Positions 4,771 to 58,616 of a stretch of 64,000 nucleotides of DNA are shown in pieces. A program made the position numbers and the translations under genes. Position 1 is the stretch's first letter. Each line of letters opens with the position of its first letter. Location of the stretch: the NCBI GenBank assembly GCA_034437755.1, contig DAOTTV010000078.1:1-64000 (forward strand). Direction: 5' to 3'. The notes under the pieces are model-generated. The model did no database searches, was not told the origin of the DNA, and saw only the letters and a program-made list of their open reading frames with translations. This DNA comes from Anaerolineae bacterium. Lineage in GTDB: Bacteria; Chloroflexota; Anaerolineae; Aggregatilineales; Phototrophicaceae.

Positions 4771-4795
4771 ACCCAAAAGGGGCGATAGACATCGC

Positions 4796-4960
4796 GTAAC
4801 TACTCAGGTAGAGTCTTCTTGTGGGGTTTCACCCCACGCCCCAGCAGGTGATGTCTCCCTTGCACCCCAATTTTGCCGAACGCAAAGCGTTCGGCGAGTA
4901 CAGGTTCAACGGACGATCGTCCTTCGTGGGGGTTCGGGGGCAACGCCCCTGAGTAGTTAC
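4796..4960. mobile_element. MITE-like non-autonomous element, family 1, copy A (165 bp).
   Basis: Perfect 13-bp terminal inverted repeats GTAACTACTCAGG / CCTGAGTAGTTAC. It is flanked by a perfect 8-bp direct repeat GACATCGC (4788-4795 and 4961-4968). It is about 90% identical to a second copy at 51206-51368. Internal palindromes include GGACGATCGTCC and GCCGAACGC-AAA-GCGTTCGGC. Confidence 0.6.
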
Positions 4961-44096: not shown

Positions 44097-44252
44097 GGTG
44101 GCTGTCCTCGTTTTGTGTTGCGGAGATAGTTAAGTTATTGTAGCAGGATATTCAGATGTGAACTAGCGTTTTCACATCAGTGACGCATGAGTAACAAACC
44201 ACACGTTGACCGCACTGCCGCTGTCGGGGACAATGCAGGTATTCATTTACTC

Positions 44253-44390
44253 GGTTCTTTCGTATCTTGCGTGGTCAAGCTCTTTTTGTTCCCTTTTTTC
44301 AAAATGAACAAAGTCAAGGAACAACAGTTCCTTGTAGGGGTGCGAGGGCAAAGCCCCTGCAACAAAAACCACGCGACATCCCAAAGAGCC
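44253..44390. mobile_element. MITE-like element family 2, copy 1 (138 bp), 29 bp upstream of folD.
   Basis: Imperfect TIRs GGTTCTTTCG...CCAAAGAGCC (ISL3-like GGCTCTTT ends). Flanked by an 8-bp direct repeat ATTTACT(C/T). It is about 90% identical to 53537-53720 apart from a 46-bp indel. Internal hairpins (GTTCC...GGAAC, GGGC-AAA-GCCC). Confidence 0.5.
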
Positions 44391-44419
44391 ATTTACTTTT
44401 AATCACAGGAGAGTGTCAA

Positions 44420-45304
44420 TTGACAGCCCAAATCATCGATGGTCGTGCCGTTGCCAAGCGTATTCAAGCCGAGATCAAAGAACAGGTCGCCGCGTTTAAA
44501 GCTCAACATGGCATCGTACCCGGCTTAGGGGTCGTTATGGCAGGCGATGACCCCGCCTCGGCGATGTACGTCCGCATGAAGCAACGCCGATGCGAGCGCG
44601 TCGGCTTCGAGTCCTTCACGACGACAATTGCCAAGGATACCACACAGGAAGCAGTCGAAGGTTATGTGAAAGCCTACAATGACGACCCAGCGGTGCATGG
44701 TATTCTCGTACAGTTGCCCCTGCCCGATCACATCGACGAAGAAGCGGTCTTGGCACGAGTAAGCCTCGCCAAAGATGTCGATGGCTTCCATCCGGTTAAT
44801 ATCGGGGCGCTAGCCATGAAAGGACGCACGCCGACCTTCACCCCGGCAACCCCGACCGGTTGCATGACCTTGATCGACGAGACGGGGATTGATCCCTCTG
44901 GCAAGATCGCGGTCGTTCTCGGGCGCAGTAACATCGTCGGGATGCCGATGGCGATGATGCTAAACAAAGCCAACGCCACCGTGACGATTGTCCACAGCCG
45001 CACGCCAAACGACGCCGATATCATCGCAACAGCTGATATTCTGGTCGCGGCGATTGGCATCCCGGAATACGTGAAAGCAGATTGGATCAAGCCCGGCGCA
45101 GTCGTGATCGACGTAGGCACGAATAAAGTCGATGCGCCGGATACCGAAAAAGGCTACAAGTGGGTCGGCGATGTCGCCTTCGACGCGGCGAAAGAGGTTG
45201 CCGGTGCGATCACCATTGTTCCGGGTGGTGTCGGGCCGTTGACGATTACATCGCTCTTGCAGAACACGATGAAAGCCGCGCAAATGAGCGTCGCTGGGGC
45301 CTAA
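44420..45304 (+). CDS. folD: Bifunctional methylenetetrahydrofolate dehydrogenase/methenyl-THF cyclohydrolase.
   Basis: LTAQIIDGRAVAK.., YVRMKQR.., Rossmann GRSNIVGMP. TTG start at 44420 with an AGGAGAG RBS. The longer track ORF from 44267 reads through the upstream repeat element and is rejected. Confidence 0.9.
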   Translation: MTAQIIDGRAVAKRIQAEIKEQVAAFKAQHGIVPGLGVVMAGDDPASAMYVRMKQRRCERVGFESFTTTIAKDTTQEAVEGYVKAYNDDPAVHGILVQLPLPDHIDEEAVLARVSLAKDVDGFHPVNIGALAMKGRTPTFTPATPTGCMTLIDETGIDPSGKIAVVLGRSNIVGMPMAMMLNKANATVTIVHSRTPNDADIIATADILVAAIGIPEYVKADWIKPGAVVIDVGTNKVDAPDTEKGYKWVGDVAFDAAKEVAGAITIVPGGVGPLTITSLLQNTMKAAQMSVAGA

Positions 45305-51145: not shown

Positions 51146-51205
51146 TTGGGAACGATTGCGGTTAATGGCGTGTCTGCGTGTATATAGAGAGAACGCGAGT
51201 CACTC

Positions 51206-51368
51206 GCAACTACTCAGGTAGAGCCTTCTTGTGGGGTTTACCCCACGCCCCAGCAGGGGATGTCTCCCTTGCACCCCATTTTTGCCGAACGCTTCGTGTT
51301 TGGCGGGTACAGGTTCAAAGGACGATCGTCCTTTATGGGGTTCGGGGGCAACGCTCCTGAGTAGTTAC
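51206..51368. mobile_element. MITE-like element family 1, copy B (163 bp).
   Basis: TIRs GCAACTACTCAGG / CCTGAGTAGTTAC (12 of 13 match). Perfect 8-bp target-site duplication AGTCACTC (51198-51205 and 51369-51376). Homologous to 4796-4960. Confidence 0.6.
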
Positions 51369-51472
51369 AGTCACTCTATGTATGTGATGGCGGATTCTGT
51401 ACAATGGTTCGATGAATATCTAAGCGTGCGTTTTTTAGCCCATTCAACTGATCAACTAGTAAGCAAGCCATT

Positions 51473-52474
51473 TTGGACATCATGACACCACCGACTTATT
51501 CGATTGTCGCCCCTGTATACAACGAAGAAGGCAACCTACACGTATTTTATGAGCGTGTCGCTGAGACGATGAATCGCCTCGACGAAACATGGGAACTGAT
51601 TCTAGTCAATGACGGTAGCCGCGACGGATCATATGACATCATGCAAGACCTCGCCACCCGCGATGGCAAGGTACGCTATGTGAACTTCGCCCGCAATTTC
51701 GGTCACCAGACGGCTGTCACCGCCGGCATCGACTATGCGACGGGTGACGCGGTCATCCTCATCGACAGTGATTTACAAGACCCACCGGAAGTGATCGCCG
51801 ATTTGATCGAACAGTGGAAAGCGGGTTACGATGTCGTGTACGCTGTGCGCGCCGATCGACGGGGCGAAAGCTGGTTTAAGTTGGCGACAGCGAAGATGTT
51901 CTACCGCGTGCTATACCGCATTACGGATGTTGATATTCCGCTGGATACGGGCGACTTTCGGCTGATGGATCGGCAGGTAGCGGATGTTCTGCGCCAGATG
52001 CGCGAACACAATCGCTTCATACGCGGCATGACCAGCTGGGCGGGCTTCAAGCAGACGGGGGTCGAATACGTGCGCCACGCGCGCGAGTGGGGCGAGACCA
52101 AATATCCCCTGCGTAAAATGCTCAACTTCGCGTTAGATGCCGTGACGAGCTTCTCGTTCTTCCCCTTGCAAATCATGGCGTATGCCAGTTCATTTCTGGC
52201 GATGGTCGCGATTTTAGTCGCCATCGTGATTTCAGCCTTGCGACTATCATTCGGTGAGGAATTCTTCGGCGGGCAGGCGACGACGATCGTTCTGTTGTTG
52301 CTGTTGAGTTCATTCCAGCTCTTCTTCTTATTTTTGATGGGGCAGTACATCGCCCGCATCTACGACGAGACACGCGGTCGCCCCTTATACGTGGTGGCGA
52401 AAACCGGCGGCTTCGACCAAACGCAAGCATCTCCCCCACCTCATGAAGACGTTGAGAAGGAGTCGAATATCTGA
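51473..52474 (+). CDS. GT2 glycosyltransferase (polyprenyl-phosphate sugar synthase, DPM1/GtrB-like).
   Basis: SIVAPVYNEE, DGSRDGS, the DxD (DSDLQD) motif and two C-terminal TM helices. Confidence 0.85.
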   Translation: MDIMTPPTYSIVAPVYNEEGNLHVFYERVAETMNRLDETWELILVNDGSRDGSYDIMQDLATRDGKVRYVNFARNFGHQTAVTAGIDYATGDAVILIDSDLQDPPEVIADLIEQWKAGYDVVYAVRADRRGESWFKLATAKMFYRVLYRITDVDIPLDTGDFRLMDRQVADVLRQMREHNRFIRGMTSWAGFKQTGVEYVRHAREWGETKYPLRKMLNFALDAVTSFSFFPLQIMAYASSFLAMVAILVAIVISALRLSFGEEFFGGQATTIVLLLLLSSFQLFFLFLMGQYIARIYDETRGRPLYVVAKTGGFDQTQASPPPHEDVEKESNI

Positions 52475-52704
52475 TGACTGAGGACGACATGCGCCAACAG
52501 GTGAGCGCGTACAACGAATTGGTCAAGCAGTATCACGCGCTCGATGAAGAGATCGACACCCTGCTGAGCAGTTACGGCGGCTATACTGAGAATATGACCG
52601 ACAGCGCCATGCAGACCTATCGCGCGCTGGCACGCAAGCGGGATGACGTTTTCAACCAGATGCGGACGATGGAACGCATCCTATTTGCAGACGGTAACGA
52701 ATAG
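52474..52704 (+). CDS. Small hypothetical protein (76 aa).
   Basis: ATGA overlap with the GT2 stop suggests translational coupling; no recognisable motif. Confidence 0.35.
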   Translation: MTEDDMRQQVSAYNELVKQYHALDEEIDTLLSSYGGYTENMTDSAMQTYRALARKRDDVFNQMRTMERILFADGNE

Positions 52705-52779
52705 CGTTATATTGTGATGGGAGCTAGCAATCAGCTTGCTAACCCATCAATCCGTTCGTTATTGAGTTGAGTCGCTCTT

Positions 52780-53472
52780 ATGTATCCTGACGACCGTGTG
52801 CTTGTGGGTATCATCAACCGCAAGCGTGATCTTGATTACTTCCTCAAAGCACAGTGGTATCGCGTGCCACAACACCGCTTTCCACAGGGGATATTCACGG
52901 AATATGTTGCCATTTATCTGAGCGGTTATCCGGCGCGTAAACGGGGGCAAGGGGGCATCTGTTATTATGCGTCGCTAGCCGGTGTCGAGCTTGCATATCG
53001 TCGCGATCTCTTGCCGGAAGAAGCCGCACACCCGCGTGCCGATGACACCTACTATCAATTACAGGTGCGCGACATCGAAGGGCGCACGCCGCCGATCACG
53101 AACCCGACTAAACGCCCGATCAGCTTTATCTTCACGACGTGGGATCGCTTCACACAGGCGCAGACTATCGCGGATTTATACAGCACGGCGGATTACTTCG
53201 TCGATCGCATCTATCATGCCCTGCGGGATCGTCGGATTCGATCACAACGTTACTGGGATGCCCAACGCAAAGAGACCGGTTATGGCGCAGGATTTCGCAT
53301 CGTGTGCGAGCGTGGCGTGCTGAACGCGCACATCGGTGCGAGTAGCGATGATGACACAATTTTCAATCTCGATTTGGCGCACGACGAAGACGACATTCTG
53401 CGCGAGATCGAAACGCGCATCGCTAGCATGGGCGGTGTCGTGACTTTGCCCGTGCCCCCCAACGAGAGCTAG
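52780..53472 (+). CDS. Hypothetical protein (230 aa).
   Basis: Intact ORF with typical codon usage and no recognisable domain. Confidence 0.45.
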   Translation: MYPDDRVLVGIINRKRDLDYFLKAQWYRVPQHRFPQGIFTEYVAIYLSGYPARKRGQGGICYYASLAGVELAYRRDLLPEEAAHPRADDTYYQLQVRDIEGRTPPITNPTKRPISFIFTTWDRFTQAQTIADLYSTADYFVDRIYHALRDRRIRSQRYWDAQRKETGYGAGFRIVCERGVLNAHIGASSDDDTIFNLDLAHDEDDILREIETRIASMGGVVTLPVPPNES

Positions 53473-53536
53473 ATTAGCGGATATTCATCATCGGACAATA
53501 TGCGTCCGGTGCTGAATGCGCTATGATTGAGTTTAT

Positions 53537-53720
53537 GGGTCTTTCGTATTTTGCGTGGTCACGCTCTTTTTGTTCCCTTTTTGAAAAAAGGGAACGCCAA
53601 AAACTTTTGCTTTTTGAACGCTGTTCGTTCAAAATGAACAAGGTCAAGGAACTATCTTTCCTTATGGGAGTGCGGGGGCAAAGCCCCTGCCACAAAAACC
53701 ACGCGACATTCCAAAGAGCC
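53537..53720. mobile_element. MITE-like element family 2, copy 2 (184 bp), 41 bp upstream of the F420 gene cluster.
   Basis: TIRs GGGTCTTTCG...CCAAAGAGCC. Perfect 8-bp target-site duplication GAGTTTAT (53529-53536 and 53721-53728). Carries 46 bp not present in copy 1. Confidence 0.5.
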
Positions 53721-53761
53721 GAGTTTATTATTCAGAGTATGAGATGAGAAAGTGATAGATT

Positions 53762-54439
53762 GTGACGGAACAAGACGCACCGCTTATCAAATCCATTGCT
53801 GTACTCGGTGGTACAGGCAAAGAGGGATCAGCATTGGCGAAACGCTGGGCATTGCACGGTTACCGCGTAGTCATCGGCTCGCGTAATTTAGACAAAGCTC
53901 AACGGGCTGTCGAAGAGATGAACGCCGAGCTAGAAAGCGATTATCTCGTCGGCATGACTAACGAGGATGCCGCGCGCACAGCAGGCCTAGTCGTACTCAG
54001 CGTGCCCTATAGCGCCCATCGCGCCACGCTGGAGAGCGTCAAAGATCATCTCACGGGGAAAATATTGGTCGATGTCACTGTACCAATTATCCCACCGGAT
54101 GTCAGCACGGTGACGATCCCGGAGGGATCATCGGCGGCACAAGAAGCGCAAGCCTTGCTCGGTGATGATGTGCGGGTCGTCTCGGCATTCCAAAACGTGA
54201 GTTACGTCAAGCTGAAGCAGTTAGGCGCGCGCGTCGATTGTGATGTGCTGATTACAGGGGATGATGCCGACGCAAAAGAAGACGTGATCGAACTCGTCAA
54301 AGCGGCGGGTATGCGCGGTATCGACATCGGGCCATTAGCGAATGCTGTCGTTGCCGAAGCCCTGACACCAGCATTGCTCTACATCAACAAGAAGTATAAG
54401 GTTAAGGGTGCGGGGATTCGCATCACAGGGATTGAATGA
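53762..54439 (+). CDS. npdG: F420-dependent NADP(H) oxidoreductase (NpdG/Fno family).
   Basis: Rossmann fold IAVLGGTGKEGSALAKRWALHGYRVVIGSR and NpdG-like length of 225 aa. GTG start. Confidence 0.8.
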   Translation: MTEQDAPLIKSIAVLGGTGKEGSALAKRWALHGYRVVIGSRNLDKAQRAVEEMNAELESDYLVGMTNEDAARTAGLVVLSVPYSAHRATLESVKDHLTGKILVDVTVPIIPPDVSTVTIPEGSSAAQEAQALLGDDVRVVSAFQNVSYVKLKQLGARVDCDVLITGDDADAKEDVIELVKAAGMRGIDIGPLANAVVAEALTPALLYINKKYKVKGAGIRITGIE

Positions 54440-57581: not shown

Positions 57582-58589
57582 ATGTCCGATCGAGTAGGCT
57601 TATACTTGCAGGATGACTTCACGCTGGCGGATTCGATTGATTTCGTCAAGTATGCAGAGGCGCGCGGTTTCGAGAGCGTCTGGCAATCCGAGACGCGCCT
57701 CGTGCGCGATTGCATCGTGCCGATGGCGGCTTATGCGACCGTTACCTCGCGCATTCGCATTGGTGCCGGCGTGATGAATATCTGGACGCGCAACGTGGCG
57801 ACGATGGCAGCGGAACTAGTGACGCTCGATGACATCGCGCGTGATCGTATCATCTGCGGGCTAGGCACGTGGTACGACCCGCTCGCGGCGCAGGTCGGCG
57901 TGACGCGGCGCAAGCACCTGTTCGCCATGCGCGAAGTGTTGACAACCCTCAAACGTCTCATGCAGTTCGAGCGCGTGACGTATCGTGGCGAGTTCGTCCA
58001 TCTCGATGACGTGCATCTCGACATCGTGACCGGACGGCGACAAGCGCGCCGCATCCCGTTTTATATCGGCGCGACCGGCGCAAAGACGCTGGCACTCGCG
58101 GGGGAAATCGCCGATGGCGTGCTGTTGAATTATCTCGTATCGCCCCATTACAACGAGATGGCGATCGCCCAGATCGAAATCGGCGCGAAGCAAGCCGACC
58201 GCCTCTTACATCACATCGACCGCCCGCAATTGATCGTCTGCTCTGTCAGTGTTAATCGTGATGATGCGCTGAACACCGCCCGTCGTCTCGTGGCACAGTA
58301 CATCGTGCAACAACCCCAGCTGATGCGCGCCAACGGCATGCCGCAGGGCTTGATTGACGAACTGGCGCAAGTTTTACCGCCGACAGCCTCATTAGAACGC
58401 ATCGAACAGGCGATGACGCTAGTGCCTGATGATGTCGTACAGATGGTCACAGCGTCCGGCACGCCCGATGAAGTCAAAGCTAAAGTGCGCCAGTATGTCG
58501 CTTCTGGCACGACGATGCCGGTGCTATATCCGCTCGGGCGTGATGTGCGTTTGCTGATTGATACGTTCGCAAATGGCTATTCAAGCTGA
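57582..58589 (+). CDS. Luciferase-like monooxygenase (LLM) class F420-dependent oxidoreductase.
   Basis: TIM-barrel LLM motifs (FESVWQSET, IGAGVMNIW). Start at MSDRVG with a GGGGAGAG RBS. Confidence 0.8.
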   Translation: MSDRVGLYLQDDFTLADSIDFVKYAEARGFESVWQSETRLVRDCIVPMAAYATVTSRIRIGAGVMNIWTRNVATMAAELVTLDDIARDRIICGLGTWYDPLAAQVGVTRRKHLFAMREVLTTLKRLMQFERVTYRGEFVHLDDVHLDIVTGRRQARRIPFYIGATGAKTLALAGEIADGVLLNYLVSPHYNEMAIAQIEIGAKQADRLLHHIDRPQLIVCSVSVNRDDALNTARRLVAQYIVQQPQLMRANGMPQGLIDELAQVLPPTASLERIEQAMTLVPDDVVQMVTASGTPDEVKAKVRQYVASGTTMPVLYPLGRDVRLLIDTFANGYSS

Positions 58590-58616
58590 TTGATACGTTC
58601 GCAAATGGCTATTCAA
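58553..58616. repeat. Perfect 32-bp tandem duplication (two copies) spanning the stop codon of the LLM gene.
   Basis: GCTGATTGATACGTTCGCAAATGGCTATTCAA repeated head-to-tail at 58553-58584 and 58585-58616. Confidence 0.7.

Follow-up and report, generated by a model that had tools for sequence, protein, structure and literature searches.

Does one repeated sequence, lying in the same orientation before folD and before the cofactor F420 genes, place folate and deazaflavin metabolism under common control, or has a mobile element landed near two start codons? The question arises in a 64,000-nt stretch of DNA from an Anaerolineae bacterium (contig DAOTTV010000078.1, assembly GCA_034437755.1; called the window below). 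An earlier note, made from the letters alone, had put forward both readings, chance insertion of a MITE at promoter-proximal sites and a cis-regulatory module shared by the two pathways. In our analysis, terminal repeats, target duplications, multiple copies, ISL3-type ends, and absence from the npdG locus of relatives all spoke for chance insertion. The shared module found no support in the unrelated neighbors of 18 further copies, in sense and antisense orientations of 6:3 (p = 0.51), or in Rfam, which has no match to the element. We consider it probable that the element is an ISL3-derived MITE and that the npdG and folD copies are two independent landings, not a module of common control.

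Two copies of one element before npdG and folD

The copy before npdG (copy 2; 53537 to 53720, + strand) is the canonical 184-nt form of the element, which we call the family-2 MITE, and it matches the family model over positions 1 to 184 (nhmmer E value of 5e-65). Direct reading of both flanks found GAGTTTAT at 53529 to 53536 and again, identically, at 53721 to 53728, so that the perfect 8-bp target-site duplication claimed for this copy was borne out. The left terminal inverted repeat, GGGTCTTTCGTATTTTGCGTGGT (53537 to 53559, + strand), agrees at 18 of 23 positions with the reverse complement, GGCTCTTTGGAATGTCGCGTGGT, of the right terminal inverted repeat, ACCACGCGACATTCCAAAGAGCC (53698 to 53720, + strand). 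The first gene downstream is npdG, encoding NADPH-dependent F420 reductase (53762 to 54439, + strand), an assignment based on matches to TIGR01915 (201.6 bits, with a cutoff of 149.8) and PF03807; it is followed by cofE, a gene for an FbiB-C-like nitroreductase, cofD, and cofC. The right end of copy 2 does lie 41 nt before the npdG start, as had been proposed, and the GTG at 53762 is both conserved in three related genomes and the start chosen by gene callers.

The copy before folD (copy 1; 44253 to 44390, + strand) is a 138-nt derivative that ends 29 nt before the TTG start of folD (44420 to 45304, + strand), ahead of which there is a ribosome-binding site, AGGAGAG. Its left duplication, ATTTACTC (44245 to 44252), matches the right one, ATTTACTT (44391 to 44398), at 7 of 8 positions; when the boundaries are moved by one base, an alternative duplication, CATTTACT, matches at 8 of 8. 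A 28-nt terminal probe allowing up to three mismatches found copies 1 and 2 as the only sites in the window, on the same strand, with none expected in shuffled sequence, and this confirmed that one repeat stands before both folD and the F420 operon in equal orientation.

The two copies differ in length by 46 nt, the figure that the earlier note gives for an internal segment special to copy 2, while the string it printed for that segment is 49 nt long. Its polarity was reversed by the family consensus: since 6 of the first 13 full copies measure 184 nt and this length is canonical, copy 1 is a 46-nt deletion derivative, and the first-pass reading, in which copy 2 carried an insertion, was overturned. 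The description of the segment as partly palindromic was accurate, as it contains one arm of the GTTCCCTTTTT/AAAAAGGGAAC hairpin and the entire GAACGC-NNN-GCGTTC hairpin.

We found exact matches to the NpdG protein in microbial-mat metagenomes (PRJEB25599) and in the metagenome-assembled genome (MAG) GCA_964509265.1, and both copies are present on near-identical contigs. In four other assemblies of the npdG locus (L045 to L048), the sequence starts within copy 2 (window positions 53585, 53676, and, for two contigs, 53680), which is the behavior of a multicopy repeat; the element fragments assemblies of its source organism, whose contigs end within copies. The nearest other NpdG proteins are 74 to 78% identical and come from sequences labeled Chloroflexota, Anaerolineae, or Phototrophicaceae. 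Three of these relatives (L049, L051, and L052; NpdG 74 to 77% identical) share the order GT2, an ORF of ~72 amino acids, an ORF of ~230 amino acids, npdG, cofE, nitroreductase, cofD, cofC, and a luciferase-like gene, and their spacers before npdG (88, 121, and 123 nt) hold no trace of the element. The corresponding spacer in the window is 289 nt long, and subtraction of 192 nt for the element and one copy of the duplication leaves 97 nt. The empty syntenic spacers and this remainder argue that the npdG copy is a lineage-specific insertion within a spacer of otherwise normal length. No empty site for the folD copy was found among the relatives, because their gene order around folD differs.

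Three further features of this neighborhood stood out. Two ORFs directly upstream of npdG (~72 to 76 and 230 amino acids; 52474 to 53472) keep their position in L049, L051, and L052; they have no match in Pfam or NCBIfam, and the F420 cluster may include them. In the relatives, a gene of the amino-acid-kinase family (316 amino acids; L049:6776-7726 and L052:6951-7901) lies between the UDG and GT2 genes; the corresponding interval of the window (51146 to 51472) lacks this gene and contains a MITE of a second family. Finally, an exact 32-bp tandem duplication at 58553 to 58616 interrupts the gene for a luciferase-like oxidoreductase that follows cofC. The 32-bp unit is single in other assemblies, and the NCBI MAG contig has two units split by 100 N, so the duplication looks like a scaffold-join artifact that frameshifts the gene and not like biology.

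Terminal repeats of ISL3 type and a census of copies

We searched contigs from one genome per species with a degenerate pattern covering both ends of the element, GGNTCTTTSGNATNTYGCGTGGT. The pattern occurred at 42 or more loci, and among the matches listed almost all are in Chloroflexota MAGs (Anaerolineae, Anaerolineales, Thermoflexales, and Promineifilaceae), many of them at contig ends; what these loci have in common with the window element is the 23-nt terminus only. In one of them (L016), the ORF just inside the terminus encodes an ISL3 transposase (PF01610, DDE_Tnp_ISL3, E value of 3e-55, with zinc ribbon and HTH domains, PF14690 and PF13542). Searches with tblastn added a complete 1,405-bp insertion sequence that has both repeats and encodes a transposase of 55% identity (L030:3989-5393) and a further ISL3 transposase bordered by a matching terminal repeat (L001). 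The right repeat of copy 2 agrees with the ends of all three of these ISL3 elements at 22 of 23 positions. The window element also shows the traits of the ISL3 family, an 8-bp duplication and ends starting GGCTCTT. No ISL3 transposase gene is present within the 64-kb window.

In Microcystis, ISL3 elements have ends starting GGCTCTTCG and 8-nt direct repeats, and mobilization of a 187-nt MITE of Microcystis aeruginosa PCC 7806 has been attributed to ISL3-family transposases (PMC11448079). Because the end of the window element also borders ISL3 transposase genes, and because its direct repeats have the length described in that work, we classify it as an ISL3-derived MITE. It has the features by which bacterial MITEs are recognized: it is shorter than 500 bp, has no coding capacity, carries ISL3-type inverted repeats of 23 nt (beginning GGCTCTTTGG), makes a duplication of fixed length (8 bp), is dispersed in dozens of copies, and has empty sites in relatives. 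The autonomous ISL3 elements of Chloroflexota (L030:3989-5393 and L016) resemble it in the terminal repeat and in the duplication length known for the family (PMC11448079). They differ in encoding a DDE_Tnp_ISL3 transposase of ~400 to 420 amino acids, whereas the window element is 184 nt long and noncoding, with a dissimilar interior.

A Promineifilaceae MAG holds a complete MITE of ~111 nt with the same ISL3-type ends and another interior, which contains a TAGGGGC...GCCCCTA palindrome (L003:231-341), and the interiors of L022 and L038 are similar to it. ISL3-derived MITEs therefore seem to have emerged repeatedly in Chloroflexota.

Two scans of metagenome contigs with family-specific patterns gave no match, although the first of these patterns is present in L053, a contig from a JGI sample. 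Further copies of the window element were located by translating the open frames across it and searching a protein database for gene-caller artifacts. A first round yielded 5 small "hypothetical proteins" and a second yielded 44, or 49 clusters on ~40 contigs. Eight of these contigs were retrieved and contained 18 further copies, for a total of 20 examined with those in the window. The 18 come from JGI 3300012002, JGI 3300012009, and ENA ERZ10759712, possibly from a sister population and not the same genome, and the census is small and was ascertained partly via ORF calls. Full-length copies are 84 to 97% identical (median, 91%), and the 23-nt terminal repeats are conserved across all 20. Perfect 8-bp duplications flank ten of the further copies, and another three are flanked by duplications that match at 7 of 8 positions. 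The target duplications are 78% A+T, compared with surrounding DNA of ~55% G+C.

All 20 copies are intergenic, and none lies inside a gene. Seven are between divergent genes, nine are between codirectional genes, one is between convergent genes, and three have contexts that could not be assigned. The codirectional copies comprise six in sense and three in antisense orientation (p = 0.51); an apparent bias among the first 13 copies (six of seven in sense) fell to six of nine after three more loci were added and was dropped. A start codon lies within 43 nt of the right end in eight copies and of the left end in three (p = 0.23). The lean toward sense orientation and the lean toward the right end agree in direction without reaching significance, and these counts are compatible with a modest preference in orientation. 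The genes next to the 18 other copies are functionally unrelated (HSP20/ROK, AAA ATPase, fasciclin, alpha/beta hydrolase, GH57, glycogen synthase, histidine phosphatase, Wzy, enoyl-CoA hydratase, and histidine kinase, among others). A survey of copies for position and orientation had been proposed as the check on a regulatory role, and its outcome, no significant bias and unrelated neighbors, is the one that had been named as the mark of simple proliferation.

The census also has a bearing on public databases, in which this MITE has seeded fictitious proteins. At least 49 clusters of "hypothetical proteins" of 43 to 130 amino acids (P0121 to P0169) are translations of it, and for one of them (P0164) the source name reads "nucleosome binding factor SPN SPT16 subunit."

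Predicted effects on the neighboring genes and competing explanations

Simple consensus scans, which are of limited reach here since Chloroflexota promoters are poorly defined, picked out a promoter-like match across the right junction of copy 2 (53703 to 53731, + strand), in which GCGACA of the right repeat is separated by 17 nt from TATTAT, made up of duplication and flank. This site agrees with the consensus at 9 of 12 positions, with 0.7 such matches expected in shuffled sequence. Neither copy 1 nor the scanned copies in L057 and L054 gave an equivalent, and we take it as incidental and confined to copy 2. Upstream of copy 1, a promoter-like site of TTGACC, 17 nt, and GACAAT ends 10 nt before the duplication. 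A weak terminator-like hairpin on the antisense strand came up at copy 1 alone, with no counterpart in the scans of L057 and L054; on these scans, an antisense terminator was set aside as a probable feature of the element.

As RNA, each copy is predicted to fold into a domain closed by pairing between its two ends, with a z score of about -5.5 (for copy 2, -67.8 kcal/mol and z = -5.55), and in folds that include downstream sequence the ribosome-binding sites are unpaired at both copies. At the gathering threshold, Rfam has nothing at the element and only a tRNA elsewhere in the window; among matches at E values up to 1, the nematode RNA SmY scored 22.9 bits, compared with a gathering cutoff of 39, and was dismissed as chance. 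Within family 2, the stems of the internal hairpins vary less than the linkers (pairwise difference, 0.067 versus 0.135), so there is some constraint on the element beyond its ends.

These data are consistent with the following course of events for an ISL3-derived MITE. An ISL3 transposase encoded elsewhere in the genome would bind the terminal repeats and paste the element into A+T-rich 8-mers. In a genome of 55% G+C, such 8-mers are expected to be concentrated just upstream of start codons, and on this account the npdG and folD copies would be independent landings. The insertions, 41 and 29 nt before the start codons, would lie downstream of the sole room for a promoter, that before folD within its 5' leader and that before npdG within a leader or an intraoperon spacer. 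The element would then most likely be carried along passively in the leader or operon transcript and would fold onto itself into its closed multihairpin domain while the ribosome-binding site stays free. Any effect on expression would be incidental and probably small. That the element shapes the expression of its neighbors, as the earlier note supposed, appears plausible solely in a weak sense, because an insertion 29 to 41 nt before a start must either be transcribed through or supply a promoter.

A stronger version of that idea is that copies near start codons are kept as mobile promoters or leaders that actively raise or tune the expression of npdG and folD. The right end could contribute a -35 element (GCGACA, 12 nt from the tip) that forms a hybrid promoter with the A+T-rich target, or the transcribed element could stabilize the mRNA. 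The junction of copy 2 has the makings of such a hybrid, the right end is 14 to 41 nt from a start codon in 8 of the 20 copies, the sense lean fits, and a promoter for folD would have to fit into the 156 nt that precede the element or into the element. However, GCGACA matches only four of the six positions of TTGACA, copy 1 and most other copies have a poor -10 partner or none (L057 and L054 have no equivalent), and the asymmetries of orientation and end are not significant. In addition, the TTGACC site upstream of copy 1 could drive folD by read-through. For a leader, the strong self-contained predicted fold with its free ribosome-binding site and the conserved hairpin stems are what one would expect, but the needs of continued transposition explain stem conservation equally well. 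We regard an active role of this kind as unlikely.

The proposal that the element is a binding site or RNA switch that brings folD and the F420 cluster under common control has already been largely refuted, and we consider it very improbable. It draws its sole support from the coincidence of orientation and from the short distance to two cofactor-related genes, and two copies in one orientation are a 1-in-2 event. Against it stand the unrelated genes that flank the 18 other copies, the absence of the element from the syntenic npdG locus of three relatives, target duplications that show arrival via transposition, and the lack of any Rfam family, including the riboswitches linked to folate and purine, beyond the subthreshold SmY match. 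It is more improbable still that the sequence is in truth a small gene or small RNA whose repeats have no significance. An ORF of 74 codons (53523 to 53747, + strand) and one of 73 (53474 to 53695, - strand) do run over copy 2, and gene callers have annotated such ORFs as hypothetical proteins on many copies. The ORFs have no Pfam match, though, the open frame varies between copies, many copies have stop codons in each frame, and every relative in the databases is another copy of the element. None was called at this site in the source assemblies, and a small RNA finds no Rfam match; we rejected the ORFs over the element as genes on account of the missing Pfam matches and the inconsistent and interrupted frames.

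With independent landings of an ISL3-derived MITE as the preferred reading, it would be wrong to read the repeat at npdG and folD as the signal of a regulon. The insertions near the folD and F420 start codons are natural test cases for the tolerance of such elements in 5' leaders.

Relation to known elements and a core shared by two MITE families

The Correia elements of Neisseria, the enterobacterial ERIC sequences, and the pneumococcal RUP and BOX elements are short, abundant, intergenic repeats with inverted-repeat ends that often lie near gene starts. Once transcribed, they form long hairpins and can have incidental effects on the expression of neighboring genes. Their ends and duplications are others (TA for Correia), and promoter, IHF, or RNase III functions have been shown for them by experiment.

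The closest described counterpart is the MITE of M. aeruginosa PCC 7806, which is 187 nt long compared with 184 nt here and has ends starting GGCTCTTCG compared with GGCTCTTTG here (PMC11448079). Both have 8-nt direct repeats, a stem-loop fold, many copies, and spurious ORFs overlying them (PMC11448079). The Microcystis element differs in its cyanobacterial host and in a reported conserved terminus of 9 nt, compared with 23 nt in the window element (PMC11448079). One of its copies was noticed through disruption of a gene (PMC11448079), whereas the copies here are all intergenic. We found no published description of a MITE from Chloroflexota in the searchable literature. The present element does not overturn current understanding; it documents an ISL3-derived MITE family, which we describe as active, in uncultured mat-dwelling Chloroflexota.

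The window also contains two MITEs of another family (family 1), with ends CGTAACTACTCAGG and 7-bp duplications. The first (4795 to 4960, + strand) is flanked by GACATCG and the second (51205 to 51368, + strand) by AGTCACT. Both contain a core of three hairpins, and the first is matched by the family-2 HMM (E value of 2e-10). In copy 2, this core occupies 83 nt (53610 to 53692, + strand) and consists of GAACGC-NNN-GCGTTC, GGAAC-NNNN-GTTCC, and GGGGC-AAA-GCCCC; the counterpart of the region in copy 1 is at 44298 to 44362. The core is collinear in the two families and links MITEs with unrelated ends, of ISL3 type with 8-bp duplications in family 2 and CGTAACTACTCAGG with 7-bp duplications in family 1. 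Its consensus fold has 25 pairs, 7 of which have pairing-preserving changes on both sides, mostly between families 1 and 2.

Elements with the family-1 end, GTAACTACTCAGG, are nested in family-2 copies or in an ISL3 element at several loci (L054:5869-5992, L054:13759-13925, L054 from 17107, L053 from 14219, and L033:99-111). This repeated nesting makes chimerism, via nesting and deletion, the simplest origin of the shared core. A precedent for such mosaics comes from the Tn3-derived TIMEs, which are reported to be short nonautonomous elements that recombine into mosaics (PMC4133298); the shared core of families 1 and 2 and the nested copies in L053 and L054 recall them. TIMEs belong to a different transposon family, Tn3, and have other ends. 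It is also conceivable, and in our estimation distinctly unlikely, that the 83-nt core is a selected cargo, an RNA leader or stability module or a site for a host factor, that two transposases have spread to 5' ends. If so, such a core would account for the sense lean and for right ends that lie 14 to 41 nt from start codons.

The family-1 end, GTAACTACTCAGG, also occurs in Anaerolineae and Thermoflexales MAGs (L005 and L034), and a 60-nt mini version of an element with this end is present at L059:9910-9969. Within the core, the 3-nt loop of the first hairpin (53616 to 53630) is hypervariable; it differs in almost every copy, with a pairwise difference of 0.70 compared with 0.067 for the stems. 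The loop triplets of GAACGC-NNN-GCGTTC include reverse-complement pairs (TAT/ATA, TGT/ACA, and ATT/AAT), a pattern expected if template switching inverts the loop of a perfect palindrome.
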